In this document: positions 7,264 through 61,140 of the stretch, piece by piece
Position numbering within the stretch: the stretch's first letter is position 1
Layout of the letters: each line of letters begins with the position of its first letter
Assembly (NCBI GenBank): GCA_000091205.1
Contig: AP006495.2
Source of the DNA: Cyanidioschyzon merolae
Lineage: Eukaryota
Reading direction: 5' to 3' (one strand)
Length of the DNA: 64,000 bases
Notes under the pieces: generated by a model
The model's database searches: none
What the model was told of the DNA's origin: nothing
The model's input: the letters and a program-made list of their open reading frames with translations, nothing else
Translations under genes and position numbers: made by a program

Positions 7264-8823
7264 TTCGGAGGGTTAGCATTGCGGCACTAGGCGAGAACGG
7301 CGCTTGTATGCGCTGCGCTTCGCGGCCGCAGGTTCGTGTTTCCTGGTGTTTATACGTAGAGCGACGAATTCTGGAAGGGACATTCGGACGTGATCTTGCT
7401 AATATTACTTGTTTCTCTCACAGACGTTCAACAAAAGAAACGGATCCTGCAGATTCGACAGACATAGCAGATACACTCTACACAAGCGCTGCTAACATGC
7501 GAATCAATGGGGCTTACCTCTAGCGTGCAGGCATTCTACGTTCAGCACTTTGGTGAACCAGTACTCTCTAGGGCCGTGCGCTAAACGTCGAGCACCCGAA
7601 CAGAGCCTCTGCAACGCCGTCAACGCGACAGTCGTCCGAGCAGTCCATTCCGCTCCATCCATGCGTGCCGCATCAAATACGACCAGACAAGCCACAGAAT
7701 ATGAATGCTCCGCCCAGGTGCGACGGACGCTCCTGAGGCGACGCCCCCGGGGAAAGCAAAAAGCACGCCGAACAACACAGACCGGTGACTTCCGACTGAG
7801 ACGCGAACGCTGCGTGCAGCAAGCACGGGTTCCCGCCGCACTCGGCACGCCTGTATCCGGGCGAGACGCCACACCGCCTCGACAAGGGCATTCAAAGAGC
7901 GAGCGACATGCCGCTGGGCGTCTACAGAAGACCAGCCAGCATGCCGACTGCATCAGCCACTGCGGCGATTCAGTCGAGCGGTCGCTTGCAACTCGCCAAA
8001 CGCGCGAAATCCTTCTAGAGCCGGTCCTTCGTCGGTGCACGCTTCGTCGCTTCTCCTTCACACATGCCGCTGCCCTGCCCCGAGACAACGACGACGCCCA
8101 TCACTGAAAATCAGCCGAGGAGTGCGCAGCTTGTCTGGCGTCCCCGCCCCTCATTCCGAGAACGTTGCTAGGCGTTCCAGACGCGGGGCTGCCAGCGGTC
8201 CGCGTCCCTCAGAGAGCCTGCGATCCAACCTTCGTGAGGCACTGCAGCTGACGCTCGGCACCCCAGGGACAATACGAGTTCATTCTTCCAGGGCGTGGTA
8301 GTATCGGGAGTCGGGCGCGACGGATGCCACCAGGCCTATCGACGAGCGGAGTGACGGCCCCAGGACCCGTGTGGACGCGCTGAGAGTGCCGTATCGAGCA
8401 GCGCGGGATGCGCTTCACGCTTCGCTCAGGGAGTACGCGAGACTCTGGATGACTCACGCGGACAGTCTTTTGATCGAGTCCACGAGACAGCGCAATGGAG
8501 TCGCCGGCCGTTGCGGCCGTACGGGGCCAGTGAGCGTGCCCTCGCCAACATGTTCCATGACCACGAAGGGCAACTGGCCGATATATCGTTTCGCTCGATG
8601 GTGGTGATGGCGGTGGGCGTAGCGGCACCCGCTGGCACCGGGCGTGCCGGGGCACCCAAGCGCTGCACGCCTCTGCTCCCTCGACGAGCGTTTCCAACGA
8701 GTGCAGGACTCGATGCCATGCGATTCCCGTGGTTGGCTTTCCGACGACATCCACGCGTCACGGGCTCGGGTGCTCGCTGATCCCCAGGTAGCGAAGAAGC
8801 ACATGAAGCAGAGACGGATGCAC

Positions 8824-9241
8824 GGCATGGTGTGCGGCAAGCCGATCGGACGTCAGCGGGCGAGACAATCGAAGACGACCGGCTCGCGATGTGGCGTGCT
8901 TGCACCACGAACAACGCGTGTGAGGAGTTTCTGCACGCGGTATCGAACGCGTCGTTCAACACCCGGACCTGCCTGGTGCTTCCGGTGCGTCCAGCAGCTC
9001 TGTGTTGAGCGGACATTCGAGGGAACGTTTGTTTCGTAACGCAGCCGAGGTACTGTACGAAAGGCGCTGCAGTGTTTTGATGAACAGAAATCCGTGCCCA
9101 GGCGAGAGCGAGAACGGGATATTCGCCTAGCGTCATCCACTGGCAGGTTATGGTTCAGCGATCCGGATAGACGTCAGAAGTGCATCGATAACGGTTTGCC
9201 GGGGCATTTACTGAGCGACCATGGTGCTCCATGATTCAACA
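8824..9241. repeat. Direct repeat copy 2 (partner of 1-420)
   Basis: Near-identical to 1-420. The ORFs 8644..9039(+) and 8853..9140(-) duplicate ORFs 4..216(+) and 30..317(-). Confidence 0.85.
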
Positions 9242-9861
9242 TGACTGCGTATTCTTCGGCCTACTCGGACGAATCACGTTAACTATCCTCGATTTCATCA
9301 TGATCATCGTGTAGGCGTGTTTCTGCTCGACCATCACAAGCCATGCGTTCGAGCCCTGCAATGTAAAGCGTTCACGCCATAGAGTACCACACACAACAGC
9401 TTGGGCGCGAGGGCCCTTGGTTGCGTCTGAAACATGCTCCCTCGCGCTTCCGAAACAGCTCACAACTTGTTCCCGAGATACTCGTTCATGTTCAAAACGA
9501 CTAGGCAGGCCAGTGTCAGTGGGCATTGCAGCATCGATTGCCGTGCAGCTGAGTGACGCGCAGACTAGAGACGATTCGGCGCTGGAGTGTTGACGGCATT
9601 GACACAAGCGGAGCGAGGCGCTCCTGCATCACTTGAGCGTCCAGCCTCGACGCGAAGGCTGGTCTTCAGAGAGCGGCCCTCGGGAGCGCCTTCAATGGAA
9701 CTTCGGTCATTTTCTTGACTACAATCCACTAAAAGCGTACAGAAACCGCTGGATAGATGTTTCAGTGCTGTGTTGCAAAAGGCGCGACCCGACATCAACT
9801 GTCACGTCGGAATGCTTGACGGCGTTCAGGCCGCGAAGCGTCCGTCACACCAGCAGCACCA

Positions 9862-10270
9862 TCTCACAACGCATGGACGATGGAAGTATATCTGTCCCAT
9901 GATCACTGCAGCGCAGCAGTGCGCTGTACAAACAGCACCATCTCACAACGCATGGACGATGGAAATATATCTTGACCCATGATCACTGCAGCGTAGCAGT
10001 GCGCTGTACAAACAGCATCGCCAGTGCGATTGGACGATGGAAATATATCTTGACCCATGATCACTGCAGCGTAGCAGTGCGCTGTACAAACAGCATCGCC
10101 AGTGCGATTGGACGATGGAAATATATCTTGACCCATGATCACTGCAGCGTAGCAGTGCGCTGTACAAACAGCACCATCTCACAACGCATGGACGATGGAA
10201 ATATATCTGACCCATGATCACTGCAGCGTAGCAGTGCGCTGTACAAACAGCATCGCCAGTGCGATTTTTT
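9862..10270. repeat. Minisatellite, 78-81-bp unit x ~5 copies
   Basis: The unit '...gacgatggaaatatatcttgacccatgatcactgcagcgtagcagtgcgctgtacaaacagca(tcgccagtgcgattg|ccatctcacaacgcatg)' is repeated in tandem. ORFs 9903..10142(-), 9943..10281(-) and 9972..10217(+) merely translate the repeat. Confidence 0.9.
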
Positions 10271-16216: not shown

Positions 16217-16399
16217 TCACTAGTTTCTGAAAACTGGTACTCCGATAAGGTGAAGTAAGATTGTCGAAGCAGTAACTGTTCATTGCAGGCTTTGCTGCGC
16301 CGCCTCCAGCGCCGATCTGCAACGCTTGTCCAGTGATTTAGAAATGGACGGTCAGCGCGATTTGCTTTGTGTTTCATAGACGCTTACCTTGATCGGGGA

Positions 16400-16615
16400 T
16401 CCCAGATTGCGGTACGGATGGTACCATTCAGAGATGCGTCCAGCATTTCCATTCCAAGTTCCATAACCCATACTTCTTCTTTGATGTGCTGGTGGTTTTT
16501 TACGTTCTGTCGTGCGCCGAGTGCCTGCCCTGATCGTCCGTGATAGCGCCTGTGCCGCCAGTTTGGATGCATCACAGCGACAGAACCACTTTGCCATACC
16601 GCAGAGGGCGTCGGC
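16400..16615. repeat. Dispersed repeat family X, copy 1 (~210 bp). The other copy is at 48425-48635.
   Basis: 'cccatacttcttc...ccctgatcgtccg.gatagcgcct.t.gc...gcagagggc.tcggctcg.gg' is shared with the 48.4-48.6 kb copy in the same orientation. Confidence 0.7.
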
Positions 16616-16869
16616 TCGGGGCGCGGTTCACTCGCCACAGAATCGAGCCTCAAATTCGATTCGTGCTCAGCCGGTTTGTGGATGCAGACTTGCCTTCGGT
16701 GCACTGCGCGTTGGAGAAATTTGGCTGTTAGGATGTATCCTGGGGGCCGCTTCTCTCTTGCGCGATCGTGTGTGAAATTCGTGTGCGGCTCGCAACACGG
16801 ACTTGTGCTTGGCACCCACCAGTGGGTAGGTGCCCAAAGCGCTGGGCCGACCCGCAATGAACGGTAGTT

Positions 16870-18973: not shown

Positions 18974-21900
18974 GTTGTAATAGGCTAGGATGTTATGTGT
19001 ATTGTATTTAAAGCGTAACGTTCTTCAGGGGAGTTTGAAGGACGTGGCTTCTTTGGCCCCTTTTCGAATCGAATCAAATACAATGCCGGAATGCGCTTCA
19101 GAAAGCAGGACGAGCCAGTAGAAGCAGCGCAGGTGCTGTGGAATGGTGCGTTATCCGGAATTGCATACTAGCGGCTGAAGAGCTCTGAGCTCGAAACCCG
19201 TGCGAGATTGGAATGAGCTACTGAAAAGCTCGATCTGTTCCTGCCTTTCGATTTTTCATCTACCTCTTCTTTAGACGTACCACGCTGGATATTCGAAGCG
19301 CATGAAGAGGGGCTCTCGGATTCACTGTTGGGTTCAGGAGTCTCGAGTGTGTTTCCAGAGTCGATCCGTCGGCGCTTTGACGCTGGCATTCGTTACGTCA
19401 CTGGGAGCAAGATGATTCGCGACGCCATCGGATAAGGGTTCGTAATATAACAGATATCATTATCCAGTGCATAGGTGGAAGCCGCCATGCTTCTCGTGTT
19501 TTAGTTGGTACAGCATACTTGAATCGCTTGTGCGTCGAGCTTCCGATTCTTTGGTTTCAAGGCGACGCGTGGTCGCAGCAGTTCGCTCCAATAGAACGAC
19601 GTCGAAAAATATTGGATATCGTCCATTGGCGACTTGTTCACAAGCTCCTGCCGATAATTCGCCGGACTTGTCGCGTGAAACATTCGATTTCATGCTAAGG
19701 ACAAAACCTGCGCCTGATGCGGTCATGAACGAAACGACATTCGACACCAGCTTGATACCTCCGACAAGATATGCCCTCGAGACTTCTTTCTCTTCCAGTG
19801 GCATGGAAACCGATCGTAGACTCTGACACTAGTCGTCGTGGCGACTTGTTTCAGTAAAGCGTGCGTCAACGCTTGGAACGGAGGGAGCGCAGGCCGATCG
19901 ATATCTGTCGACTTGTTTTGCGGTATGGATTTCATATCTGGTACCTGTTTCATCGTTGGCCACATTTCGTTACAGAAGTGCTCCACGAAATGGAACGACA
20001 CGGGCTTGTGTGTGCAGCGGACAAGATCACTTGCCGAGGGATCGCCCAGAAGAAGCGCGTTATCGTAGTGTCGGGCATTGAGCGCGGAAACAGAATGGTC
20101 CATCGAGCGAGGCCTCGTCTACCCGTCAATGAAAAGTATCGAGCGCTAAAGAGAGTGCTCTGTCGCGACAGAGCGGCCTTCAGAGGAGCACGAGCCGAGG
20201 TGGATATAGGGGAGCGTCTGACCTCAACCAAGTGTTGCATAGCTCTGAAGCGCACACCGTGCCTGTTACGGTAGCAGATTCTTTGATCGAGACTTGCGTC
20301 TGTGAATGAGGTGTGTCCATAACAGCCGGCAGATGTGAAATCAGGTCTCTAGCAGAGCCCTCAGCATCATTCGACTACAGGGAACGAAGCATGGAGGAAC
20401 GGAGAGACTGGCGTACCTGGAGAAAGAGCTGGGGTAGCGGAAAAGGAAGCAGTCGCCGAAGAAGCCCGCATAGGCACGTATCGATGACATTGGGAAGAGA
20501 CTCAAAATTTAGAGCGGATGCTCGAATTAGGTACTGTACCCGCTCCATTTCAGTATGACACGGGTGTACCACTGTACTGATTTCTATGAATGTACCAAAC
20601 CGCTGAGCACCTGAGACCATCTCGTGTCTCTTCGTGGGCACCAGCTGATTCCAGTGCAAGTGCATGAGTGTTTTGGGCCACTGCCCATACGCGTCGCTAT
20701 ATCCAGTCTGCCTTGGCGCTCTCAAAGGTCGTTTCCAATAACGTAAGGTTGTTGAACCTGATCAGCGTGTCCCGGATGCAAGATTATTAGCAGCAACACG
20801 GTACAAGTTGCACGTTCCTCTCGGAATCTGATGACATGCCGTTGACTTCAGACCAATCATCTGACCGTGAATTGTGGTTAAATGAATCCAGTGACTATAC
20901 GGGTGCCGAGCTTGCCATGGATGACCCTGGGAAAATTCGCTCAAGGTGCTTTCTCAGACGCCGCAAGCGCTCCAGCGAAGTCATGAAGACATGCTCGCTG
21001 CTGGACAATGCCGCTTTCGAGATCGCGCAGAATACCGTCCGCTCGCTTGCAGGACCCACTTGATACAGCCTTTGTGTCAACACTGCAGCAGTTCAGCTGC
21101 ACTGTTCAGTGCCAGGCCGGAGCGCTCTCGCAGAATTTATACACATGCAGTAGACGTCCACTGGTCGGAGAGCAGAGGCCTCATGCGCCATGGCGCCTCT
21201 GTCCGGTGCTTGCACCCCAACAAGTGCCGCTGGAGAACACAGAGGAACCAGAGTGGAACGAGCCCGACAGCTTATGCCGCATCGTACGCATCTGGGTTTC
21301 TGAGAAACCTAATTCGCAACAATATTCCCAAATCAAACACCTGATGGAGGCGCTTACGAGCAGTGCTGATGCAGGATTAACGAGTCGCAGCCTTCATTCT
21401 CTTCGATCACAAAGCGAGCAGTGCCCTCTGCTGATCGTTCAAAGACAGTATCGTGGTATCCGTGGCCACGCCAGCATGCGTTTGCGCGTGGATAGCGCAT
21501 CTGACTCCACAATCCGTAGTTCATGGGATAGAGCATGCGGGATCACCATGACAAAGCTCAGCAGCGCGTGGCAGTCTATTCACGAAGCGATGCACCGGAA
21601 AGCTCATCCTCAACACGACGCCCGTAAGTGTTGATTGGAGTCAGGCAATCCGCAAATGGCGCCGCAACATGATGAACCCCTCAATCGATGGATGCTGTGT
21701 TTCACCGAGTGGCGCTGCTCGAGCACTGCAAGGCAGTACTAGTTATACAGGTAAGGCGACCGGAAGCTGAACAATTGGAAGAGGTTTGCGCACCCCGAGG
21801 TGCGTCTTCGGGACGAGGCCGTTGGACGAGCTGCTACCGCTGCAGGTGCGCCGCGGTATATCCATCGACAGGGCTCGTTTATTGTACATGTCTTGTGAAA

Positions 21901-26404: not shown

Positions 26405-27000
26405 ACAAAATTGTTCCACCTTCAGGTGAGTTTCATCAAGTGCGTTTTCGCGGTGTATAGCAGACGCGTTCCAAGTGAGTTCACTCTAAGAAATAGAAAA
26501 TCCATAGGAGAGATATGGGCGAAGAAGTCGGGGATCTGCTAGGATCGGCATCGCCGGCTGCAGGAAAAACACGAAGAAATCCTCTTTTCGCTGACCATGG
26601 GGCGAACAAGAACAACGACAAGAGCGACGATACTCGAGGGAAGGTGTTTGCCCAACGAGATGATGACGAGATTGTAGTGGCATATATGGCACGAGTATTA
26701 GGAATTTTTGCGCCTGTGAATTCAGTCAGCGTCAATGCACGTATGGAGTTTGTGACCCGACACTTCAACGACGCTATTGGTATCAGACGATGTATGGTGC
26801 TAAAGACGAGACCCTAGGACCTGCCACGATCCATCTTTGTGGGGCAGCCTCTCAGGCTCGTAGTGTGTGAGCAGAAACTGAAACGGATTGCAGGCGGTCT
26901 GTCATAAAAAGGCTGGGTGGCGTCTGTGAGTGGGTATGTTTATTCACTTTGTGTTCGTGGGAATGTTTCCGTTTCACTGACTGTCTTGGACCAGACATCA
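26405..27000 (+). mobile_element. TnpB/Fanzor-like element, 5'-truncated copy B (3' module)
   Basis: The mini-ORF 26515..26817 reads '...RGKVFAQRDDDEIVVAYMARVLGIFAPVNSVSVNARMEFVTRHFNDAIGIRRCMVLKTRP'. The 5' boundary block 'ttgttccaccttcaggtgagtttcatcaagtgcgttttcgcggtgtatagcagacgcgttccaag' and the 3' tail 'gcagcctctcaggctcg...attgcaggcgg...aaaaaggctgggtggcgtctgtgagtgggtat...tgtgttcgtgggaatgtttccgtttc' are both shared with the other copies. Confidence 0.6.
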
Positions 27001-31140: not shown

Positions 31141-34100
31141 TCAGCATTGTTTGCGAGTATCTCGCGCCACGGTCCATTCCGGGATCGAGGCATTCAACGC
31201 CGTCGCCGGGGATGCGCCCAGAGTCGCCGTGCTCGAGAGCGCCTCGCGTCGTGCAACTAAATTCAAGCGCTCTGCGAAAAGCTCCTTCCGGTAAATCTCT
31301 ACCTGCTCCCGCTCCCGAAGGAACTCCTCTTCGAGCTGCTCAAGTACGTTCATCTTTTCTTCGAGTTTCCTCACCTGAGTCTCGATCGCCTGTTCAGTAG
31401 CCCGGTGCAGCTCTAGATGCTCAATGGCGGCGAGCTCCGCGGCCCGAGTGGCCGCAGCGCCAAGCGCCGTTGCCGCAACGGCCTGGATTGCATTCGCATC
31501 CGCAAGCGCTTCCGGTGGTGCGTCGCTTTTCATGATCGCTGCCAACGCGGCCCGGGCAGCAGCAGCAGCGACATCCGGCGAGACGCTGTTCGCGAGAAAC
31601 GCAATATGCGCCATCAAGGGGTTTCCGGCGTCGGCGAAGAGCGGCGGCTCGTTTCGTTCGGTCTGCACCGTCTCGCCAGCTACAGCGGGTACCGCTAAAC
31701 GACTCAAATCATCCTCGAGAAACGGATCTTCAATGGGTAGACGAATGAATTTGGTGATGCACGCATCGCGGGAACGAGTGCCAACGTGCTGAGCAACCGC
31801 ATCCCAGTCATCACCGTATGCCTCGATTCCTTCGAGAAGCTGCAGCACCTCAACATCAGTCCAGTCGTCCGTGCTCGGAGCTGTGAGGGTTCCAGTGGCG
31901 CTAGCCGCCGACCCCAGCGATAGAACAGGTCTTAATTCGATGAAATCTTTTCCATTGAAGTCCTCGGGAAACTTGCCCTGATGGTAGCATTCGGGGCACA
32001 GGTCCATATCGGCCTTGAGCAAACAGTGGTACCGGCGTTGGGAGCAGTCTCTCCCGCACACGTCACACTGGTACTCAATGGCTGCCGCTGCGGCATATAA
32101 TTCACGGCGCGTTGCCATGGGCGCCAGATGCATGCGCGATTTCGGAATACGCGACCCGTCGTCAAACAAGAATATGCGAGGAAGTCCGCCCTCAAGACCA
32201 GCTGAGCTTGCTGCCAGGCTTCCCGAGCTGGTGGAGATAAGCGTCGCACCGGAACCCGAAAACCCGCCGCTAACAGTCTGTGGGCGCGTCTCGGGTGCCA
32301 CTCCGTAGTTAATCAGGCCCCACTGCTCCAGAAAGGCGTGCACACGCATGACGGCACCCACATCGCCAGCGAGATGCCTCCGAACAGCTGTGCCTGTTAG
32401 GTAGCGGGTCGGATCCTGCCGCCACGTGTCAATCATAAAATTTCGGTAAAGCATGTATACTTCGGGCGTTTTCGAAGCAAATTTCCCAGAGAAAAACTCC
32501 GGCAACGCGCGTCGCTCAATGTCGTGAATCGCATCGATGCGAAACCATCGGCTGTGCGCGGGAACACGAATCGGCGACTTTTCACCAATCGCCGTGGCAG
32601 CAGCCGCAGCCGGAAGCGTTTCCCGCTCCGCGAGGCCACCGAGTGCCTCGGCGACGCGACGCGGTGCAAGCGATTCTCGATCACGTGGCGCGTGTGCTGC
32701 CGGCCCCGGAAGCGCATCCTCTTCGGCTGCCGCAGCGTCATTCCGCTCTTTTCGTCGTTCGCGTAATGCTTCTCGCTGCTGTGCTAACCTCTTCTGTAGC
32801 TGCTCATCCCGCGAAGATGCAGTTACATTGCGCATGCGCAGTGTCGCGTCATCTGGAACTAGCGGACGCACCGTTGGGCGTGAAATGCGCGGTGCAGCGC
32901 CGGCCGCAGCGCTTGGCTGCTCCGCATCGACCGCAGCGCAAGTCTCCGTTGTGAACGTGATCGGGCCAGCAATATTCGGTGCCGGAACTTGCTCCGCGGG
33001 TGCATTGCTCGAGCTTCCCGCGTCCTGGCTCGCTATCGGCGGTGCCAAGCGAACCTTGATCTTCATCGGCTCTGCGGATTCCTCTCGGACGGCGCGCACC
33101 GTCACCCGTTCTGGCGTGCCGTCTGGCTCCGGCTTCACGGGACTCGGTTCAGCGGATTTTCGTTTCGACGGCGTCGGTGCTGCGGTCTTCGACTCGGATC
33201 CTCGCAGGTGGCCATCGATGCGCGAGGCCGATGGCGGTTTCCACTCATCGACATTGAGCTTCTCCTCTTCGGGTATTACCTCATAGTCGTTTTCATTGCA
33301 CCACTCATTGAACTTTTCGCAATCCTCGAGAAATCTTTTCTGCACATGCCATATTTTGCCCTCAATCACTCCGGAGAGATTCTCCTCCTCTCCGTGCAGT
33401 TCGCCGTCGGGATCTTCTACCTCCTGAGCGGGAATCCATGAATCGTACGAATCGGGAAAGTACCACCAGTGCGTCAGTACTTGATTCCCTTTCCTTTTCA
33501 GACTCACGCAGTAGTCCTCTGCCTCGGTCTCAGCCTCTGTCGTGCCGGGTGGATCGGGGTACACAATATGTGTTGCCTCGCGAGGCGACGAAACGACGGA
33601 CGCACCATGCTTCCTTGCAATGGCGCTGAGGCGGTCAATCTCCGCCGAACCCAATGCCGGTGCGAAAAACAACCGCGGCATCTGGAGCTGTTTCCGTTTT
33701 ATCAGTTCCCGCTCAACTTCTTGGAGCATCTCTAAAAAAACTCCAGTCATATCGGGTTTGTGGAGATCAAAACGCCGTATTCCACGAGCAACCCTGAACC
33801 GAAAACAGCATTCGATAATTGTACGCAATGAGCCGTGTGCCGAGTAGTCGTGAAAGAGACGATTCGGCAGTTTCGTCATGAAACCCCGAATTTCTGGCGG
33901 CTCGACGGAGTTCCGTCCGAGAACCCGCTCTTGAAACTGAAGCAGGTTACCGGTCAGGAGGCTCAGCGCGCGCGGGGAGACGTCCACAGAGTCACCGGGT
34001 CGAAACCCCAGTTGTTCCGGCGATTCAGCGTTTAGCTGTGCCGAGATTGCCTCGAACTTCGCAATTTGATGAGGATCCTCGTAGTCTTTCATGGATATAT

Positions 34101-34317
34101 TACAGGACTTTACCCGCTTCCGCCGCGAATCCGCAGGTCTCTGACCTTCAGCTGACGGAAAAGCAGTGTCTTCCCGCGCATCCGCTGCAGCTCCTGTGCG
34201 CACTTCTTCAGACGGGGTAGACGTCGACTTGTTCCCGTCCGGGATGTGTGTTCCGTTGCCTTGCTGCTCTCGCGCGGTGCGGGAGCGTCTCTTCCGCGGG
34301 GGAACCATGAAAAACAC
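31141..34317 (-). CDS. SWI/SNF complex subunit SWI3/SMARCC-like (SWIRM - ZZ zinc finger - SANT - coiled coil)
   Basis: SWIRM: '[66 protein letters not shown]'. ZZ: '[35 protein letters not shown]'. SANT: '[48 protein letters not shown]'. The C-terminal coiled coil is '[47 protein letters not shown]'. Confidence 0.8.
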   Translation of the reverse strand: [1058 protein letters not shown]

Positions 34318-34318
34318 G

Positions 34319-35143
34319 TCACAGAGTTACTAGCTCCACCGAAAGACTTTCAAAAGTCGATAGCTTGAATATCAGTATACAGTAGTGGCGAGCTGCGCGC
34401 CCCAGATCATACGTCTCCAACTGATGCGCAGATGCCTCCCTGTCTTTTTTGGACCGGCCATCTACTACTGGTTTCAACTTGTTTCCGTAAAATTCCGCCT
34501 GGAGAGGTTCCCCCACAAAGTTGGCTCTTGTCAACTCTGGAGGCCTTCTTTCCATCACCGCACATCTCCTGATATTGATAGCGACATTAAAGTCTCGGTT
34601 CACAAACTCCATACGTTTCTTGCCATCATTGGTTGTACTAACCAATGCGATTAGTCCACGATCTTTCGCCCTCCCTTCCGGTGACTGCTTCGTCAGCGCT
34701 CCGTACTTTGATATATCCACAGGACTCCTCTGGCACTTTTCGATCTGCACGCTCTGGAGTATGCACCCCAGCTCATGGTGTGTATACGATGTTCGGAACT
34801 CATCTACAGGTATCGTAACGAGACGCCTTGTGCACTCCTTGTACGCTCTTGTCGTCGGAGCTGGTGGACATCCTTTTTGGGTCATCCAGCGCCCTGCTCC
34901 GCACGCTACTACGAGCCTCTGACTTTCATCCTCTTTGAAGGCACTCAACTCATTGAAAAAATTCGCGAATGCACGCGGTTTCCCACAATACAAGTTCATA
35001 CGCAAACGAGCCCACCGGGGCTTTGCATACTCATTCCACAGTGCATCCCAATGAGCAACGCGAACTTCCATGAATTCCTGACAAGCTTGAAAGTCTGCTC
35101 CGCGGCTCGTCATCTGGTTCATAGCTTCAAGGTGCTCTTGCAT
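34319..35143 (-). pseudogene. TnpB/Fanzor-like RuvC nuclease, C-terminal portion (RuvC-II/zinc-finger remnant and RuvC-III). The ORF reads through into the flank and ends 1 nt from the SWI3-like ATG.
   Basis: Motifs as above. The expected CxxC...CxxC zinc finger is absent or degenerate. The frame is continuous for 274 aa but is separated by ~236 bp containing stops from the upstream ORF 35379..35993. Confidence 0.45.
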
Positions 35144-36750
35144 TCCTGCATTTCACGTCTCATTTTTCCCTCGCATTCAGTATTCCCGACTCTCGGTGAT
35201 ATCCCGCTCGTGAGAGGTTTAACTGATGCATGTCTTTCTGGCATAAATTGCCTTCAATACCATCCTCCGCACGCTTGGGTACTGCGATGTTATGATATTC
35301 GTATTCATAGGGTCCGCGCCATCGACAATGTCGTTCTCATGCACTTCCTGCGTCGTAGGATACACCTGCTTCTTTTCTTCATGCTTCGTCATGGGCGATA
35401 TCGAAGACGGACCAGTACGATCTGTCTCCAAGCGCCGATTGTGTACATATATGGCTACTCCATCGCGTTCGATCATCCCCGTGAGTACATTTCGCTTGTC
35501 CTTTTTGTGACGTTTGAAATCGAAGATATTCTTCCAAGTACGTCTCCTGCTTTGTACCGGTGAACTCTGTCTTCCTTACATCGAACTCCGGACAGATCTC
35601 CTTCATGATGCCGTACAGGATTCTGGAGTCGATCGTCACAACGCGTGACTTGATGTTGCACAACGGCAGGACGTTGAAGTGCTTCCCCAGAAGCGCAGCC
35701 TTCCGTTTCTCCGACTCTTCATTTTTTCCCGCGCCTACGTCCTTTCCAGTCTTGCGTTCCAGGTCTCGGTCCAAAAACACGAGATAGTGCAGGATTAGGG
35801 TATAGGATCCTTTACCATATTTTTCCATATTTGATATTTTTTCTTGTGAATTCGGCAGCCCCAGTACCGCAAGGTGCTTTCGAATAGCCGCGCGGATCAC
35901 AGAAGCTTCATTCCTTCTCCCGCGTGACATCTTCCCGTCGACGAGTTCGATCTCTTGTGCATTCTTACTCTCGTTCGCGACGCCATTGATCATGGCTCAT
36001 CTCCCTTTCCGAGCGAGACCCGGGTACAGCGCATAGACGGCGCGTACCATGAAGCGTTTGACGTTCACGGTCATCTGATTCCTCAGGTTCGTGAGGTACT
36101 TCATTGCCCCGTAGGCGTAGACCTCCGCGAGTCACCTCTGTATCTAGAACCGCTGCAGCGGTATTTGGGTAATTCTCGTTGAGGGCATGCACTCGCTCAT
36201 TTTCGTCGACGTTTCCCCTCTACCAACGATCAAGTGGCAAATAAAGGTCCTGCTGAAAAAAATCCTCCGGAACCGCGACTGTTTTGATGTCTGTCAGGTC
36301 GCGATACATCCATTTCACCAAATGCATTAGTCCTGAAGGAGCCTTTACATTACTCACGGAGTATGACACGACACGGTTTCTGATGGCCTCTCGCATCTTT
36401 GCCTTGTACGCATTCTTGGTATGTCCAAGAAGACAGACTTTCACACCGACTCTTCATACTGTCGCCTTTCTTGCAGCCTTTGATGTCGGGCTTCCTTCTT
36501 TTGCTCCTTCGTCTCGTCCTGTTCTTCTTTGCTTAGCACTATTTTTCATTCTCTCCGTAAGTCGGCGACACTGTGCCTCCGGGATCCTCCACTTGCTTTT
36601 CCATACCTTTCCTTTTTAATATTTTATGAAAAATAACGCTCGTTAAACGCGTCTGGTAGAAACCGCGAAAAATCACTTTCGTTCACTGACTTGAGGATTA
36701 GAACACAATTGAATTGAAAAACTATACGTTGCCACGACTTTAATGCAAAT
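34380..36750 (-). mobile_element. TnpB/Fanzor-like element, longest copy (C), a ~2.4-kb low-GC island with split ORFs
   Basis: GC drops to roughly 45-48% across this interval, against ~58% for the flanks. ORFs 35379..35993(-) and 34319..35143(-) lie in tandem on the same strand. The 3' ORF contains 'PVDEFRTSYTHHELGC' (compare TnpB 'VDPAYTSQTCS.CG') and 'KKRMEFVNRDFNVAINIRRC' (RuvC-III-like). The tail 'ggccggtccaaaaaagacagggaggcatctgcg' is a diverged version of the tail shared by the other copies. The 5' boundary is approximate. Confidence 0.55.
35379..35993 (-). pseudogene. Upstream ORF of element C (possible N-terminal/RuvC-I part of the TnpB-like protein)
   Basis: Same strand and immediately 5' of the C-terminal ORF. 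'[14 protein letters not shown]' could be a RuvC-I-like 'xxIDxG' segment. The assignment is weak. Confidence 0.3.
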
Positions 36751-37757
36751 ACAACTTGACCGGTAGAGCAACAAGACAACGAATGGTCACGAATGCATTT
36801 CCCTTCAAAGGCGACATGCGCGTCGTGTCTCGAGGCTGCCAGGTTTGGAGATGCGCGTATCGAGCGCGCTATATAGAACAAAGAACAGAGACTCACTTGT
36901 AACTAGCAACGAGATAACGAGTTCTTTCCCTGTGTACGATCAACGTCAAAAATGGGGAAAAGATTTCCATATTGTCCAAAATATTCCTCATAGACGGACG
37001 GTCCCGCGAGCCGGACAAGTCTACCAGGCTGGTGCTTCCTGCTCCCCCAGCGGCAGGCGCTTTCGTGAACTCCGAGCAGCACGTCCGCAACGCCATTCAT
37101 TGTGGAATTACAAGTCGGCAGAATGCTTCTGGGCGTGTCGCCCTGGTCGCAGAGGGCTCCTAATACGCTGCTTCACGCTGCCGCAGGCAGAGGGTCTATC
37201 TGCCCAGGTATCAGCCTCTCAAAATGATATTTAGCCCTGATTCCGTAGCAGATGGAGCACGCCTCGAGCCGACGCCCTCTGTGGTATAAAAAAGCCGTTC
37301 TAGCTCTATGAACTATCTGCTCCAGCTGTTCAGGCGCAAAGGCGGATACGGAAAGGCAGGTACTCGGCGCACGATAGAACATAGGAGACGACCAGCATAT
37401 CCGAGAGGAATTATGGTTAACGAAGCTTGAAGGAAGGGTGCAGCATGATGAAAGCTTTTGAGCTTTCCAATATCCATCCCGCAGTCTGGGATCCGTAGTC
37501 CATACAAACGTGCTGTCATCGAAAAGCAAAAAATCGGACACACAGACTCGACGCGTCGACGGCGCTACGTTTGGCGGCTAGCGGCCTGGTGGCGCCTTTT
37601 CGCTGGGCGCAATTCGCTGCGGCGGACTGACTGAATGGGCGATAGCGCGGCAGCCATTGGAAGGCCGCGCTGTGGTATGTACGGAACCTAAGACGCTGGA
37701 GTCGCATGGGGTTGGACTCTTGACCAAAGAACCCTTCAACTTCTCCTTTGTGTACAT

Positions 37758-39107
37758 ATGGATCATAAAGTTGTCGCGTTAAAGTGGGACTCCCGGAGCC
37801 TGCAGTTGAGTCCGCGACCGATCGGAACGTACCTGCGAGCAGACGGCCGACTCGGGCGCCGACGGCGACAAGGTTCCTCCGGTCAGCCTGGTGCAGATTC
37901 AGTGCTTTCTGATGGTGTCTTGGAGGTAGCAAGTTCCAGGTCCGCATTTCTGTCGAAGCATGATACGTCTGCGCTTACATCGGAGGAGGGCACTCGTCGC
38001 CAGCGGGTTTGGAGCTTTGCCTTGCCCCTGTCGCGCCGGCGTTTCTCTGAGGCGGAAGAAGAGGCCCGCGGCTCATCGCTCAAGTCATCTGTCCAGCCCA
38101 GGGCGACTAGGAAGCAGCCGTCGTGGAAGTATTTGGTATCGGGTGCACTTGCTGGCGTCATTTCGCGAACAGCGGTGTCACCGCTTGAGGTCGTCGCAAC
38201 GATGAACATGTCGACTTCGTTGGCGACGCGTAACTTTATCCACGAAATGATTGATATCTTCCGCCGGGAGGGTCTGCCGGGTCTATTCAAAGGAAATCTT
38301 GCGAACTGTCTGAAGGTCGCACCCACAAAAGGCATTCAATTTGTCGTGTTCGAGACCTTCAAAAGGCTGATGGCTCGTCGGCGCCAGTGGTCCCAGGTAC
38401 GCCGAGCAGCGCGCTTCCCCGAGGGCAACGTACTTGTGGAGGAGCTCGATGATATAGAGCTTACAGCTGGTGAGCGCCTGATCGCTGGAGGCATCGCCGG
38501 TATGGGTGCAGCTGTCCTATGTTATCCACTTGAGGTTTCCAAAACGCTTCTGACCGCCGAACCTGGGCGCTATCGGGGCGTGTTCGGAACGCTGCGATCT
38601 CTCGTTCGGGAAAGAGGCTTCCAAGCATTATACCGCGGGCTCGTACCGACGATGATCGCCATGTTCCCGTACGTCGGCCTCGAATTTATGGTGTACGAGC
38701 AGCTCAAAATAACTCTGGCGAATAAGCGTGCTCTAGCTATGGCCGCCGTTGGAAAAGGCCCAGAAGGAGCGTCGCCAAATGCTCGACTCGGACGACAGCC
38801 GTCGAGCGACCAGCTCCCTGTCGGCGTTCTGCTGCTGATTGGAGCGATCGCCGGCACAGTTGCCCAAACGGCCTGCCATCCGCTAGACGTCATACGCAAG
38901 CGATTACAGTTGCAGGGCATTGGCAACCGACCGGTTCAATATAAGAGTATGATCCATGTAGCCCAAGAAATCATTAGAAATGAAGGTGGAGTGCGGGCAT
39001 TGTACAAAGGCCTATCACCGGCAGCAACGAGTGTGTTCCCCAGCGCTGGCGTAAGCTATCTCGTTTACGAATGGTGCAAGAATGCTCTCGGGGCAAAATC
39101 ATTCTGA
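37758..39107 (+). CDS. Mitochondrial-carrier-family protein (SLC25A42/Brittle-1-like) with a ~110-aa N-terminal extension
   Basis: Carrier repeats carry the motifs 'PLEVVATMNM', 'PLEVSKTLLT' and 'PLDVIRKRLQ', with downstream 'ALYRGL'/'ALYKGL' signatures. The N-terminal 110 aa are basic and Ser/Arg-rich. The start is uncertain. Confidence 0.65.
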   Translation: MDHKVVALKWDSRSLQLSPRPIGTYLRADGRLGRRRRQGSSGQPGADSVLSDGVLEVASSRSAFLSKHDTSALTSEEGTRRQRVWSFALPLSRRRFSEAEEEARGSSLKSSVQPRATRKQPSWKYLVSGALAGVISRTAVSPLEVVATMNMSTSLATRNFIHEMIDIFRREGLPGLFKGNLANCLKVAPTKGIQFVVFETFKRLMARRRQWSQVRRAARFPEGNVLVEELDDIELTAGERLIAGGIAGMGAAVLCYPLEVSKTLLTAEPGRYRGVFGTLRSLVRERGFQALYRGLVPTMIAMFPYVGLEFMVYEQLKITLANKRALAMAAVGKGPEGASPNARLGRQPSSDQLPVGVLLLIGAIAGTVAQTACHPLDVIRKRLQLQGIGNRPVQYKSMIHVAQEIIRNEGGVRALYKGLSPAATSVFPSAGVSYLVYEWCKNALGAKSF

Positions 39108-40759
39108 GCGAAAGTCTAATGCTCACTGCTTGCTCTAGAGCTTTCCAGAGGATGCACGATCAAACTGGAGGCCTCGCCCAGCACCCTACGCTTCTCATTA
39201 GTGTAAAATGGTCGTCAACGGAGCGCATGCTGTATTGTGCCTCGAAATGACTTGGGGAGTTGCTTTATCGTAGCGCGCGGCCATGTGGCTGCCGGGTTTG
39301 CTCGGTCGCGCACTGTGGTTCCGACCTCACAGCTTCGGGACTGGAGCGTTGGGACGACGTCCTACCTGTGCTGACTGCATTCATTTCAGAATGAAATGGA
39401 ACGGTTCCGTTAACTTGGACGTACAGGCCAAAGTTTGGGTTTCTTGCCACTGTAACCGACACTGGCCTTTGCGGGCTTTTTTCTAAGATTGCTTCCTTTT
39501 CCTCTTTCTTGTCCTTGGCTTGAAATGCCGCAGTTTCGCGTGCTGCACTAGCTCCGGTGACAGCAGTCGAGATATGTCACTGGCTGCGTTCAAATCCCGA
39601 TTTCCCGGCTTCCGACTGTTCTCTACGCCTCTCATGCGCAGGCGGAAGTAACGATATAAGCTTCGCTTACCGTTTTCATCTCCTTTGTGTGCAGCCTTGG
39701 TATGCACTTTTCAGCGGTGAAGCGTGACTGTAATCCGGTATCCCATGCGTCCGTCACACCTGTTCCTCCTGCGGGTACTGCCGAGTGGCGCGCGAACGCT
39801 TTGTTCATCGTTCGATACACGCTCCTGACGGGTACAGAAGGCTCGCCAGGAACTCCCTGCTCCGTTTCCACGCCTAGTGCCTTATCCTATGATAAGAGGT
39901 TTCCTTTGGGCGATCCCCCCCGGCGGGTATGCTGCCTGCTGTACACACAACACAGGTTGTCCCATTTATTAGAAGATTTACGGAACGCGATGTTGCCGAT
40001 GAAGAAGCGAGTTCCAGGAGGAAAATCGAGGCTCGAGACCCTGACGTGGAATTTCGGATCCGCCTGCGCTCCATTCACGCAAAGCGCTGACAATCTCTCC
40101 ACAGAGGGCGATCGCCGCGATGAGAAAAGTCTGAGTCCGAGATCCATTCCGAAGGAAAGATAAGAGACAAGAGCCCCTGAATGCATATTCCATGGAAGGT
40201 ATGATGCTTCTATGTAACGCAGATTCGCTCATGACCGTAAAATGAAAAGGATTAGCCATTCGACAGGAATCGCTCCGTTGACGTAAGAGGTTCGGCGAAC
40301 TTTCGGAATGTGCTTCTGAACAAGTCGGCAAAGGACGAAGTGAACTAACTTTCCTCGTCAATTCAACAACGCAAAGTGCTGTGCTTACGAGTTGCCTTGA
40401 AACAGAAAGATCGAAAACTAGAAAAATGCGGTATCCGCGCACGCTACACTTATGAAACACACATTATTGGGGGATTTTACGTCTGCATCGGATAACAAAA
40501 TCGGTTATTTCCCGATATCTGGTTCGAGGGCGTCGCGAATCATCTTGATTCCGATGACACAACGAATTCCATTGACGACGAATCGAAGGAGATACCCCAG
40601 AAAGATGACCGCGAATCCTTAAACAACTTATGCATGCGCAAGGCCCAAATGCTTCACGTCGAATCTCATGGCTGCAGATCTGGGAAAACGCGTAACAGAA
40701 TATCAAAAGGCACGGATAGAGCGAGCAGCCCAATGGTCTATAGTCATCCGACACTAGCG

Positions 40760-47862: not shown

Positions 47863-48424
47863 GGCAGACGCTTGAAGCGCTGGAGAATTCCATTCCAGAC
47901 CGGTGCGAATCCGGCGTCGGTTATCCTGATTGGAGTTATGGTAGAGTCTGCGCGAAATGCAACGTAAAAGGACGGTTGCTCGGGTGTCCTTCCTGTGAGC
48001 GCATTACCCCCGATATTCCAAGCAACGCAGCGATCATATCGTGGAATCGTAGTTTGAACGCAGAGCTTGTTCCGCTGTTGCGAAGGGTCGGCTGCTGATA
48101 GTGTTGCTGTCTTTGGCAGATATCCATCGCTGAAATGGCAAACATGAAAGCTGCTCCACCGTGCTGTGGTGCCCGCACCGACGCGATCGGCGTCATAGCG
48201 AGTGCTCGCGGTGAGCTCGGCACCCGGGGATTGTACGAACTGACGAATATTCCCAAAGGCAAGTATGGGCGAGGGCACCTGTATCTCGGGGGTGGTTCAG
48301 CGCCGAATGCAGCACGCTCTCCGGGACGCGCATCGCAGTCGTGAAGTCGGAGATCCGCCGGTTCTCTTTTTTATTTGGTAAAACATTTACACACAGGCCA
48401 GCGTTGCTCATCTGTGCGTTTGAT

Positions 48425-48635
48425 ACCAGCGCGCGGTGAAGCATCCATCGCTCCACACCCTACTTCCAGGCTCCGTAGCCCATACTTCTTCTCGGGTATA
48501 ATGGTGGTTTGATGCTTTCAATCGAGCACCTAGTGCCTTCCCTGATCGTCCGCTATAGCGCCTATAGCGCCGGTGCGGTTGCAGCACGGAGACGGAACGG
48601 CTTTGCAGTACCGCGGAGGGCATCGGCTCGAGGAT
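48425..48635. repeat. Dispersed repeat family X, copy 2
   Basis: Aligns with 16400-16615 in the same orientation. The ORFs 48408..48695(-) and 16384..16857(-) share the peptide 'RRY.GRSG.ALGAR...H...EEVW', which reflects this nucleotide repeat. Confidence 0.7.
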
Positions 48636-49510
48636 TCCCTGGCTCATGTGAACGCTGCTACATACAAGAAGCTCGTCAATGATAGAATATACCAACCTTG
48701 AAAATTGGCACTTTCAAAGAGGACACCAGTCTGTGTTCGACTGGAGCATACTGGAGCCAGGCGCAGTCCGCTGCAAAGGCATCCGGAGGGTTCCGTTTGC
48801 GCTTCCTGAATTCCCACTACTCCCACCAAACACGCTGAGCGGCGGTACGCCCTTTTAGAGCAATTGAAAACCGCAGCATAGTTCTTTTCAAAGCTGGACA
48901 ACGAGAAACCATCGCTGCGGCAAGCCTTCGTATCCACGTCTCCCTCTCCGCTTCTAGAGTGTGGTTGCCCCTTGTCGCGGATACAAGCCTCAGGCGCCTA
49001 TTCACGATAGACAGATACAGCCCACCGGTCTGCGTCACTCCTAGAGAAAGGCGCACCAAACGCACACATTTCCCACCACTGATTCTATCCAACCATTCTT
49101 AGTTGCGACTTTTTTGGTGTAGGATCGTTTACAGTAACCAACGGTTCCGGAGTGCCGCATGGCTTTCCCTAACTGGGGCCTCAGATACCAAGCGCCGGCT
49201 GGTCGTGCGCGCCGATGCCATGTACGACCAGCCGTTAACGAAATCGCAGCCGACGGATCGCTGCGCGCATTTTTGAAACGCCTCGAACTGGGGCGAGTGC
49301 TCCCGAGCGGCACTTCTGCTGACGTCGAGGACGTTTGCCTGCACGATCTTTGCGGAAACGAAGGTGCCGACAGACGTTGTGCTCGGCGCTTTCTTATTCC
49401 AGTGCTTGTCTGCAGAAATTCCGTCGCGAGAGATATTTGTGTGGCGCACCATCCGTCAGACTTGTATAACGGTGCTTTCTGGTACTCGTTGCCGCCGTTG
49501 ATTTGGAGCT

Positions 49511-55501: not shown

Positions 55502-57676
55502 TCGATGGATAATGGGGTTGAGTTGCTCTGCGATGCGCATACGATGTCAATTTCGAAACTGCACCCGTGTCCATAGTGCTACCGGCTTCGTTCGGAAGCT
55601 GATCTCGACAGAACATACTTCGATGCGAAAACGCTGATAGGCCGTTCGCAAGAGCTAGACGTGCTCTGCTGCAGGTGTTTCTTTGTCTCGAGGGCGGCTA
55701 CGGCGACGCGGCTGCCCCGCTTTTATGTGCCTCTTGAAATTGAATGTTGCAGGTCGCACTCGGATGAAAAAGTTCAGGCAGACTAGACCCACAAGATCGT
55801 CGTGGATGCACACTATTGGGGCAACTCCGTCTGCTTCATGGTGCGTTTTTCCGCCAAAGTTCCACAGATGCTTAGCGCACTGAACTGCTCTCGTGATCGA
55901 GTTGTATCAGGGCCCCAGCACAGTACTTGACTGAATCTGCAGCTTCCGCCCTGGATCGGAACGGGAGGGTCTTAGCGCATTCTATGCTGCACCCTTTCCA
56001 GAGCCTAGTTCGATGAAGAGAGAACACTCAACTGCTCCATCTGTTACTGCCTTGCGATTTTTCTCCGAACTTTTTCTTCGATGTAGATTCTCGGCATCTC
56101 AAGCAGAGCAACAAGCATGTATGGACTGGTGCGTATTCTTAGGATGCCCGGTCGTTTTTGTCCGTGTCTCCTGCGACGCGTAGCTGCTGGAATCTGTTAC
56201 ATCACCCGAATCAAGATGTGTCGCGACGCTCTTGTACATGAGTTCGCAAACTACCCGATATTATCATCCACTTCTTGCGTAGAAGCCTCCACTCTTCTCC
56301 TTTCATTTCATACAGCATGCATAAACCACGCATTCTCCAGTTTTTCGATTTTCTGTTTCAAGGAAGGTCCTGGACGCGGCAATCTGCACCGCTGGGTTGA
56401 CGACAGAAAAAAATTGAAGTCTTCCTTTGAAGACTTCCGCACAAGCTCAAGTCGAAAGTTCAGTGAATTTGTCCCGCCGAATAATCGATTCCGTTCGAAA
56501 GACAATTCCAGCTCTCTTTGTGGCCATGGACGAAAAGCGCGCGACTGCAGCATGAGGCGCCTCTCGGGATACGCCCCCGGACGCTCCCGTCTCTTCGCTT
56601 TCCATGGACAGGGGTCTTTGACGAGGAATCCCGGCATTGCAGCGATCGCTTCGAGTGGAGAGTGCGTCCTCGCGTCGTACGAAGTGAGCGAACAAGGATC
56701 GAAATTTCGTGGCTCTTTCTGCAGCCGGAATTCGCGTTCCGCTACTTTTTTCATCATGGGCAGTATTGTATGCCAAACGCCCTCTATCGAACGCGATGGC
56801 ATGCGTTTGCCTCTACAGAGGACAGGTTTCTCGTCTAGGGTATCGCATAACAGAAGCTAGTGGTAGTCGGAGATGGCGTCGGACGCGGGAATAAACCTTG
56901 GCACCGAGGCGAGCTTCCTGTTCCCGTCAAGAGCATGCACTGAGTGGTGAACCAGGCGTTCGGGCACGAAAAAAGTCCTTTCAGACGATACGTTATGGTG
57001 GACATGCGGGAACAGCAGACAATAACAAGGTGTCAACGTTGCGAATGGCGCACCGAGGCTGTGGACAAAGGCCATGAGCAACGCAAGCGAAGCATAGATT
57101 GCGGCTTCCAGCTTTGCATGAAGTGCATCGACAACAACCGGAAGCTCCAAAATCGAGTCTTGAGGCTGCTGTCAACATCGGTCGACTGGTGACATCGAAT
57201 CTGGATGGCAACAGGAGACACGCGTTTTTCTAAAGCCGGACATGAGCGACAGCAATCGAAGCAGTCTCGGAAATATCTCGCAAACGCTGCTGTTACTGAC
57301 GATGAAAAGGGACCCAAACTTTAGTTTGTACGTCCATGCTAGGTGGCAGGACCAGTTTCATTTTGACCTGGCACGGGTGAAGCAGATAGAGTGCATTTCC
57401 GGGTAACGCAGTTCGATCAGTGCGAGCATGCCCACCCTGGCCGAAAAGAACTCGCGATGAGGTATCCAGTTTGAAACTACGGACCTCTGTTGGGATACGC
57501 TTGCCTTGCATGCGTTAGACAATCTTCGATGGTTTCTTGGCGAACTTCCATGCAGTTGATTCGTCTGGACCCTGGCATCGGGTCTGAGGCAGTTTCAACC
57601 AGTCGCGATGGCGCAGACAAACTTGGCGGGTAGTTTTTAATTTTGCTTCAACTTCGCGTGCGGTGTTGGCACTTGT

Positions 57677-60504: not shown

Positions 60505-61140
60505 CATAATCTTTCACCTACATTGTGTTCCGGCCCTAGGTGGGTGTAATCAAATGCTTTTTCGAGGTTTATAGCAGATTCGCTCGAAAGGCGTTCTTTT
60601 TCAGAAATCGAAAATCTACAAAATGGTTTGGACGTGGAAATTGGGGGTCCCGGAGTTCCGTTGTCCCCGAGTTCAACAAAAAAAGGAAAAAATCCTCTTC
60701 TCGCCAACCTCGCAGCGAAGAAGAGCATGTTACGAAGATGAAGATTGTGACGAGACTGTAGTGGGACAGAGGGTACGAGTTCGAGGAATTCTCCCACTAC
60801 TGTGTTCAACTGGCGGGAAGAAACGCAACGAGTTTGTGAACCGGGACTTCAATGCCGCCATGAATATCAGACGATGCACGGCGAAGCCGAGACCCGACCA
60901 GCCCACGCGAGCCAACTCTGTTGGGCAGCCTCTCAGGCTCGACGCGCAAAAGTAGAAGCTGAGGGCGATTGCAGGGGGCCCGCCAAGAACGGCTGGGAGG
61001 CGTTTGTGACTGGATATCCATTTACCCTACAGCTGCGAAACTTTTTCGCTCCGTTGAGCTTGCAGACCCTGCGCATCCCAACTGGACTCGAACCTAATAT
61101 CGATGTATCCAGAAAGATTAGGGGCGCATTAAAAGTACAG
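60505..61140 (+). mobile_element. TnpB/Fanzor-like element, 5'-truncated copy E (3' module), the best-preserved mini-ORF
   Basis: The mini-ORF 60623..60955 reads '...DCDETVVGQRVRVRGILPLLCSTGGKKRNEFVNRDFNAAMNIRRCTAKPRPDQPTRANSVGQPLRLDAQK'. The 5' block 'cattgtgttccggccctaggtgggtgtaatcaaatgctttttcgaggtttatagcagattcg' and the 3' tail 'gcagcctctcaggctcg...gaagctgagggcgattgcagggggcccgccaagaacggctgggaggcgtttgtgactggatatccatttaccctacagctgcgaaactttttcgctccgttgagcttgcagaccctgcg' are both shared with the other copies. Confidence 0.65.

Follow-up and report, generated by a model that had tools for sequence, protein, structure and literature searches.

In a 64,000-nucleotide stretch of chromosome 13 of the red alga Cyanidioschyzon merolae strain 10D (contig AP006495.2; this whole stretch is called the window here), an island of low guanine-plus-cytosine (GC) content lies directly upstream of, and on the same strand as, a SWI3/SMARCC-like gene. 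We conclude, with a probability of about 0.9, that the island is a single old copy, fixed and inactivated, of the C. merolae element family that carries Fanzor1, that is, CMe-1A with TE-N2_CMe as its 5' part. Its position is typical of the family: the 3' ends of other copies also lie next to the start codons of host genes on the same strand far more often than expected by chance.

Architecture and boundaries of the element

The preliminary description of this DNA had put the island at 34380-36750. Comparison with independent copies showed that it is larger, a composite of ~3.2 kb (3.19 kb) on the minus strand made up of a Fanzor1 body of the CMe-1A type, now a pseudogene of ~2.5 kb (34342..36870), and a 665-bp repeat that forms its 5' module (36871..37535). 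The drop in GC that had been noted is real: GC is 0.42-0.53 over ~34350-36900 against a window mean of 0.553, and the coding GC of the flanks is 0.584 in the SWI3-like gene and 0.565 in the mitochondrial carrier gene on the other side. The body aligns continuously with an intact element at locus L001 (5675-8470), to which it is ~75% identical in nucleotide sequence.

The ends of the element were placed from 14-25 independent copies. The 5' end of the body was set at 36870, where the alignment of the window copy to four independent full-length copies begins. The sequence there reads AGCGCGCTCGATACGCGC and may form a weak 5'-terminal hairpin, GCGCG-CTCGATA-CGCGC (36853..36869, minus strand). A GC stem of 4-5 bp, for example GCGCT-CGGTG-AGCGC, is found at the equivalent place in most independent copies and is unclear in L029 and L048. 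At the 3' end, the sequence ...GGAGGCGTCTGCACGTCAGTTGGAGACGTTTTGTCTAGGGCGGGTTTCTCGCCACTACTGTACACCGTTGGCGTCGTTCGACTTTCGAACGGCGTT is common to 23-25 independent copies, after which they diverge, and its last base is 34342 in the window. Because the copies are enriched in G and T and poor in A over the ~13 nt past 34342 (0.3-0.5 bit per position), the 3' end is fuzzy by up to 13 nt, to ~34329. Thus, the 33-nt spacer (34309..34341, minus strand) between the last conserved element base and the ATG of the SWI3-like gene may belong to the element in its first ~13 nt, and the distance from element end to ATG is ~20-34 nt. No terminal inverted repeats join the ends of the window copy, and the L001 and L016 junctions show no target-site duplication.

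The 5' module was recovered by nhmmer both on Fanzor bodies and on its own. It adjoins the body on the 5' side at four or more further independent loci (L015/L018/L048, L029/L081, L063 and L128) and stands solo at L016 13577-14213 and L108 4926-5554. It probably corresponds to TE-N2_CMe. The metagenome contigs L002-L006 break within this module, those from the carrier side stopping at 37035-37071 and those from the SWI3 side at 37197. We read these contig ends as assembly breaks in a repeated module rather than as a sign of polymorphism; repeat collapse or strain differences could be the cause.

The protein belongs to Fanzor1

A conceptual join of the minus-strand reading-frame pieces was used as the query for homologues, and 89 were obtained, metagenomic or from assemblies. 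Identity is 56-61% for the best of them, which have 580-750 aa, and 29-36% for distant full-length relatives; the intact homologues measure 600-750 aa. The relatives carry the precomputed Pfam label PF26935, which is DUF8286. Our own Pfam searches gave nothing relevant for the two long open reading frames (ORFs) of the island and two smaller ones, and for the intact relatives a single sub-threshold TNB-domain match, that of P0084 to PF07282 (E 0.0017; 18.9 bits, where the cut-off is 26.3). An hmmsearch of the Protein Data Bank (PDB) with a profile of 12 relatives matched the Fanzor1 proteins of Parasitella parasitica (E 1.8e-16), Spizellomyces punctatus (E 5.6e-12) and Guillardia theta (E 0.04). 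The structure comparison that had been suggested earlier was carried out with an AlphaFold model of the intact relative P0060 (mean pLDDT, the predicted local distance difference test score, 79.6). In a Foldseek search against the PDB the top seven matches are all Fanzor1, over the whole chain, with E from 7.5e-18 to 1.1e-15 and template-modelling (TM) scores of 0.5-0.68, and the next matches are Cas12X (E 3.9e-05), Cas12f, other Cas12 types and Fanzor2. Sequence profile and fold both assign the protein family to Fanzor1, of the TnpB superfamily; this agrees with the earlier assignment to TnpB/Fanzor and makes it specific.

The family conserves four motifs, namely, DPG, AYGAG, DEFRT and NRDxNAAINI. 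The D and P of DPG, the RuvC-I motif, are invariant among the 12 relatives. In the window copy RuvC-I reads GADPMNTNII (35291..35320, minus strand), with the Asp codon GAC at 35314-35312, and family alignment places it in a shifted frame between the two ORFs; the VVTIDSRI that had been offered as a possible RuvC-I is not the motif. At the canonical RuvC-II position the family has Gly for Glu, in VVAYGAG (VVACGAGRW in the window copy). An alternative Glu, nearly invariant, follows ~37 residues on in VDEFRT (VDEFRTS in the window, GAG at 34801-34799), and the RuvC-III Asp lies in the conserved FVNRDxNAAINIRRC (NRDFNVAINI in the window, GAC at 34594-34592). Passages of PMC10530073 describe a rearranged RuvC-II in Fanzor proteins, with Gly or Pro instead of the canonical Glu and another Glu ~45 residues downstream, and, as read from its motifs, the active site of this family matches that rearranged site.

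No C4 zinc finger (CxxC...CxxC, OrfB_Zn_ribbon) is present in the window copy or in the intact relatives. In its place the red-alga family has THHELGC...EKC...LLALVSTT, and the distant relatives have a single Cys. The earlier remark that the zinc finger is missing was correct, since there is no CCCC in the window copy, but its absence cannot be taken as a sign of inactivation because the intact relatives also are without it. It is thus a trait of the family and not a product of decay. The zinc finger is regarded as universal in TnpB and Fanzor. A C4 zinc finger between the [TS][TS] block and RuvC-III is part of the motif that defines Fanzor in the passages concerned of PMC3627910, and a CCCC zinc finger in the NUC domain is common to SpuFz1 and ISDra2 TnpB (PMC10432273).

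The window copy is a pseudogene

Decay was scored codon by codon against the intact element L001 5675-8470, which codes for the 752-aa protein P0004. The window ORF has eight frameshifting indels (36446, 36263, 36207, 36170, 36129, 35537, 35290 and 35163) and two TGG codons of the relative are in-frame TGA here (35999-35997 and 35155-35153); both nonsense codons and three of the eight frameshifts fall in the span 35153..35999 (minus strand). There is also a 225-bp in-frame length difference from L001 in a repetitive spacer, which varies among intact copies as well. The two minus-strand ORFs listed in the preliminary description are both present as fragments of this gene. The 204-aa fragment (35379..35993) starts right after the TGA at 35999-35997, a Trp position in the relatives, aligns with residues ~181-349 of P0004 and covers the N-terminal helical half to just before the ETDG strand, while the 274-aa fragment (34319..35143) carries the RuvC-II/III and NUC region by motif alignment. 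The 236-bp gap between them aligns residue for residue with the intact relatives in shifted frames. The 274-aa ORF runs on to 34319 because a 1-nt insertion near 34452 shifts the frame and because the usual TAG of the family is TGG in 10D, and its stop is not the natural stop of the element.

The window copy retains the three catalytic codons. The ten lesions bear out the earlier suspicion that the protein is inactivated, and the window copy presumably cannot make the nuclease. The longest open frames of 14 other full-length copies are 134-587 aa and only L001 is open for 819 aa.

The usual stop codon of the family sits in the first hairpin of the 3' end described below. In L001 and L016, which have the longest open frames, TAA is found where most copies have CAA (L001 ~8256-8259; alignment columns 93-96), and their proteins therefore end ~38 residues before the usual stop.

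The insertion is old and fixed in the sampled strains

Ten metagenome contigs carry a variant of the 1055-aa SWI3-like protein that is at least 90% identical to BAM81074. All ten run into the element and are 99.0-99.5% identical to the window, and the two longest have the same 204-aa and 274-aa ORFs. No empty site was found among them, since every contig that reaches the 5' end of the SWI3-like gene continues into the element. Between 10D and L005 the element has 18.6 differences per kb and the SWI3-like gene 4.1 per kb, so that divergence is ~4.5 times as fast in the element as in the adjacent coding sequence; of the 13 SWI3 differences, eight fall on third codon positions, and indels account for four of the 47 element differences. 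The frameshifts at 36445-36446, 36170 and 35290 are absent from L005, which is ~99% identical, and are private to 10D. As three of the eight frameshifts are not shared, decay went on after the strains split. In every copy of the family, intact or decayed, GC is 49-50%, and in their loci it is 52-56%. Since all sampled strains carry the insertion and all copies have this GC, the insertion is old and fixed in those strains and owes its low GC to its family.

An apparent slowdown of divergence in the 3' 900 nt of the element (8.8 against 27 per kb) is due to one variant-free stretch, 34884-35250, which is not adjacent to the SWI3-like gene, and no constraint is claimed from it.

The 3'-terminal module

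The last ~100 nt of the body (34342..34439, minus strand) form a module that is a candidate omega-RNA scaffold or right end, with hairpins recurring in 23 copies. In single-sequence folds three hairpins recur, namely, AGACG-TTT-CGTCT, GGCGGG-TTT-CTCGCC and a 10-bp terminal stem, CGTCGTTCGA-CTT-TCGAACGGCG, and between the second and the third lies an invariant single-stranded 16-mer, CGCCACTACTGTAnAC (34390-34375 in the window). In the window copy the first hairpin (34418-34402) is broken, the second remains as GGCG..CGCC (34402-34387), and the terminal one has decayed to GACTTT-TG-AAAGTC (34358-34345). When the three-hairpin structure was drawn by hand on the 23 copies, 82% of the cells were paired, as compared to 33-50% with the 3' partners slid by 1-3 columns. 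Double changes occur in eight pairs in these 23 copies, which 16 of 500 shuffles also reach. Because G-U pairs are frequent, the structure is tied to the sense strand. An Rfam search of 34000-37800 gave no match. From its sequence, the 3' module would look like an omega-RNA scaffold or a hairpin-type right end.

The last ~100 nt of the element, from GGAAGCGTCTGC, also occur solo, at L025 370-464, L108 421-535 and L117 5745-5647. These solo copies lie ~700-750 nt upstream of a full-length copy and in the same orientation. The GGAAGCGTCTGC point looks like a module boundary because the short derivatives of the element, described below, leave the long form there.

The 3' end of the element often lies next to a start codon

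The SWI3-like host gene, BAM81074.1, codes for a protein of 1055 aa with the Pfam domains SWIRM, ZZ, Myb and SWIRM-assoc (31141..34308, minus strand) and is directly downstream of the element on the same strand. Its ATG had been placed at 34317, 1 nt from the stop that closes the 274-aa ORF, but the codon found there is GTG; the first and annotated ATG is at 34308, 10 nt from that stop. The close apposition that had been noticed nevertheless stands at a slightly larger distance, and other copies of the family were examined for it. Metagenome contigs were scanned for the invariant 16-mer and duplicates were removed by their flanks, which left 24 independent 3' ends of the long type with usable downstream sequence. 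An apposition was counted when a same-strand ORF with 150 aa or more starts downstream of the element end.

A same-strand start lies within 67 nt in 8 of the 24 ends and within 200 nt in 11. As a control, random non-coding positions and orientations in the same loci gave 3.1% within 70 nt and 8.6% within 200 nt, so that the binomial P is 4e-7 for the shorter distance (67-70 nt) and 1.7e-6 for 200 nt. The eight close ends are those of L016, L023, L028, L046, L070, L083, L093 and the window (34309-34342). From end to ATG, the distances are +1 for a CYTH-domain protein, +15 for an alpha/beta hydrolase, +16 for a member of the bicarbonate-transporter family, +34 for SWI3, +39 for one unnamed protein, +57 for an SMC protein, +60 for a longin-SNARE and +67 for an RsmB/NusB-type methyltransferase. 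The host genes at the close ends are real and unrelated to each other, and the ATG of the SMC gene is the true start because its SMC_N domain starts at residue 4. No comparable gene proximity was seen at the 5' ends of the same copies. Consistent with apposition, public gene models fuse C-terminal Fanzor remnants to host proteins in P0071, P0080 and P0089. Thus, the placement next to the SWI3-like gene is typical of the family. This pattern was not found in the literature that we searched.

What the apposition means for the host gene is less certain. The preliminary description had proposed that the SWI3 promoter lies inside the element. If the annotated ATG at 34308 is the true start, this holds for the core promoter, which would be in the 3' end of the element or at its edge because the element ends only 20-34 nt before that ATG. 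The core promoter, and probably the start of transcription too, would then lie in the 3'-terminal few hundred bases of the element. In Fanzor and TnpB elements the guide, or omega RNA, arises by transcription that leaves the element through its 3' end and enters the flanking DNA (PMC10432273). The simplest mechanism would be that outward transcription of the omega-RNA end, or a promoter there, drives or at least permits expression of the downstream host gene, so that same-strand insertions just upstream of genes would survive in a compact genome. Such transcription would explain why the 3' ends are so frequently found at same-strand start codons. We therefore put forward, tentatively and as a possibility that we consider well short of probable, that the Fanzor1 elements of Cyanidioschyzon are polar and promoter-proximal, either because outward guide-RNA transcription became a host promoter or leader or because insertion is oriented at the 5' ends of genes.

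Several observations weigh against this proposal and against parts of the overall interpretation. The last 200 nt of the element have three differences (~15 per kb) and thus evolve no more slowly than the third positions of the SWI3-like gene (~7.6 per kb). The first 75 SWI3 codons have GC by codon position of 0.60/0.60/0.57 compared to 0.66/0.49/0.60 in the rest. Because they lack the codon-position pattern of the gene, the true start could be Met76 (34092), and with that start there would be room for ~250 nt of host promoter outside the element. Donation of a promoter by the element is purely our inference. The covariation in the 3' hairpins is modest, and the consensus from RNAalifold was weak, had a covariation term close to zero and, owing to indels, missed the terminal hairpin. 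The identity with CMe-1A, finally, was drawn from the genome, the architecture and the protein type. A homology search with the N-terminal 403 aa of the SWI3-like protein gave no matches, and literature searches on transcription start sites in C. merolae gave nothing usable.

Alternative explanations

The split reading frame had been attributed to either an intron or decay, and of these decay is the one that stood. A live Fanzor gene with the two ORFs as its exons would be in line with the retention of all three catalytic codons and with passages of PMC10530073 that report introns in some Fanzor genes. The stretch between the ORFs, however, encodes conserved residues (the ETDG strand and RuvC-I) in other frames, the eight frameshifts and two TGA codons are spread over the whole gene and not confined to a single gap, and the intact relatives are single uninterrupted ORFs. 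To our knowledge, the genes of C. merolae are nearly all intronless. We regard an intron as virtually excluded. It was also proposed that the island is a relatively recent insertion, and a recent or horizontally acquired insertion would account for a GC of 49% against 55-58% around it. This did not hold up, and we consider it very improbable because the same-site pseudogene is in 10 of 10 contigs with the same ORF breaks in all sampled strains, because its identity to an intact copy is just ~75%, and because GC is 49-50% in every copy and hence a family trait; a scan of a viral contig collection gave no relatives either.

For the position at the SWI3-like gene two other explanations have to be weighed against outward transcription from the element. 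In the main alternative, the family would consist of hairpin-ended single-strand DNA transposons, like IS200/IS605 or Helitron2, with oriented insertion into DNA that is single-stranded at the 5' ends of transcribed genes, and the SWI3 position would then be a choice of target and not an outcome of promoter donation or selection. TnpB has its ancestral hosts in IS200/IS605 elements. Further points for this explanation are that terminal inverted repeats, and target duplications at L001 or L016, are lacking, that the 3' end has a conserved 10-bp hairpin whose G-U pairs work on the sense strand only, that a GC hairpin may lie 2-3 nt from the 5' end, that the first ~13 nt of the flank are G/T-rich and A-poor, and that 3' ends accumulate at same-strand start codons in a polar manner. 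The hairpins of the sense strand would suit an RNA just as well, though, be it omega RNA or a transcript end; the hairpin at the 5' end is weak and some copies lack it, and variable 5' modules blur the left end. No HUH/Y1 or Rep-helicase gene was seen, none having been searched for, and the elements have no second long ORF. On balance we find this explanation unlikely. Somewhat more doubtful still is the view that closeness to a start codon is a by-product of a compact genome in which any surviving insertion is near a gene. Intergenic regions of C. merolae are indeed short, and the spacer between the SWI3-like and carrier genes would be just ~260 bp without the element, but random non-coding positions in the same loci reach 3.1% within 70 nt of a same-strand ATG as against the 33% observed, and the 5' ends of these elements show no similar proximity to genes.

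Neighbouring genes and other repeats in the window

The window is assigned to 10D because seven of its ORFs are exact matches of 10D proteins from BAM81068-BAM81080. The divergent neighbour of the island is the annotated mitochondrial carrier gene BAM81075.1 (37758..39107, plus strand), with 223 nt between its ATG and the 5' end of the composite, and no protein is annotated between BAM81074.1 and BAM81075.1. The host alga grows at 40-50°C and low pH.

The island had been called the longest family member, and it is the sole long copy in the window; the rest are ~380-620 bp and are internally deleted or cut. By alignment to the family model, internal-deletion derivatives of ~570-620 bp lie at 17521-16899 (minus strand), 26410-26990 (plus) and 60506-61073 (plus). 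They keep model positions ~138-420, which are the upstream region and the first codons, and ~2390-2670, which are the last ~250 nt of the ORF, and are followed by a different 3' tail with small hairpins of its own. Copies are 60-70% identical to each other, and the same short form occurs in other loci. At 41184-40800 (minus strand) only the 3' part of a copy was detected, and another copy is cut by the end of the window (64000-63902, minus strand). Older Fanzor-like remnants are at 54-200 and 8283-9063. A direct repeat, 1-300 and 8824-9123, is 99% identical over 8.8 kb of separation and is cut by the window start; each of its copies overlaps an old Fanzor-like remnant. Partial copies of the 665-bp repeat, probably TE-N2_CMe, were found at 16360-16842 (of which the nhmmer search covers 16360-16662) and 48310-48637 (both plus strand), and the one at 16.4 kb faces the 3' end of a short Fanzor derivative. 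In addition, there are tandem arrays at 3628-4087 (period 90 nt, four overlapping copies) and 9849-10265 (~78 nt, five copies), and a dispersed repeat unrelated to the Fanzor element, with copies 64-72% identical, at 56022-56608, 19352-19494, 63386-63801 and 40352-40630 and also at L001 12486-13095.

Significance and comparison with known systems

The Fanzor type of protein was reportedly shown in 2023 to be an RNA-guided nuclease. Taken alone the locus is ordinary, a further broken copy of a family that was already catalogued in 2013 in the same genome. The ends of the family, left open in the passages concerned of the 2013 description, are now placed within a few bases and have a conserved terminal hairpin and an invariant 16-mer. 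Pfam's DUF8286 (PF26935) can be annotated, via profile and fold, as Fanzor1 without the zinc finger. The frequency of start codons at the 3' ends needs to be explained and bears on how Fanzor1 elements move and on how they affect neighbouring genes. If true, either the promoter or the oriented-insertion explanation would be a new clue to how Fanzor1 elements that have no transposase spread and persist. What deserves further work is the apposition to start codons, together with the loss of the zinc finger.

Intact members of the Fanzor/TnpB group are RNA-guided DNA endonucleases, according to passages of PMC10432273 and PMC10530073. The solved Fanzor1 structures are those of SpuFz1 (8GKH, 9CEU-9CEZ), PpFz1 (9CF0-3) and GtFz1 (9CER-T), which the red-alga family resembles in the fold of the whole protein (TM 0.5-0.68, Foldseek E ~1e-17), in the RuvC-I Asp, in the Gly at canonical RuvC-II with an alternative Glu ~40 residues on, and in the RuvC-III Asp in RDxNAAxN; the N-terminus of the intact relatives is basic and resembles a nuclear localization signal, as in the solved proteins. 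It differs from them in being only 11-16% identical and in the lack of the CCCC zinc finger in the NUC domain, and the window copy is a pseudogene. With the IS200/IS605 TnpB elements and their non-autonomous derivatives (PATEs) it shares a nuclease gene that runs, at its 3' end, into a putative structured RNA or right end, an end hairpin, the lack of inverted repeats and target duplications, and short derivatives that keep only the ends. Unlike IS200/IS605, it is eukaryotic and nuclear, no TnpA was seen, and its left end is variable and modular.

The closest known system is CMe-1A, which passages of Bao and Jurka (2013, Mob DNA 4:12, PMC3627910) describe as the single Fanzor1 family in C. merolae, with ~150 copies that are ~80% identical to a ~3-kb consensus, some of them intact, and with no terminal inverted repeats, target duplications being left undetermined there. 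According to the same passages, the 5' 635 bp of CMe-1A are a second element, TE-N2_CMe, with ~70 copies. In those passages of PMC3627910 we found no nucleotide-level ends with a terminal hairpin, no ~500-bp deleted derivatives and no start-codon apposition. As far as this partial comparison goes, the window copy and CMe-1A agree in genome, in a length of ~3 kb, in a Fanzor1 protein, in a 5' part of 635-665 bp that is also a separate short repeat, in the lack of terminal inverted repeats, and in copies that are old, diverged and mostly broken. On what those passages give, the window copy is therefore treated as a member of CMe-1A, from which it shows no essential difference.

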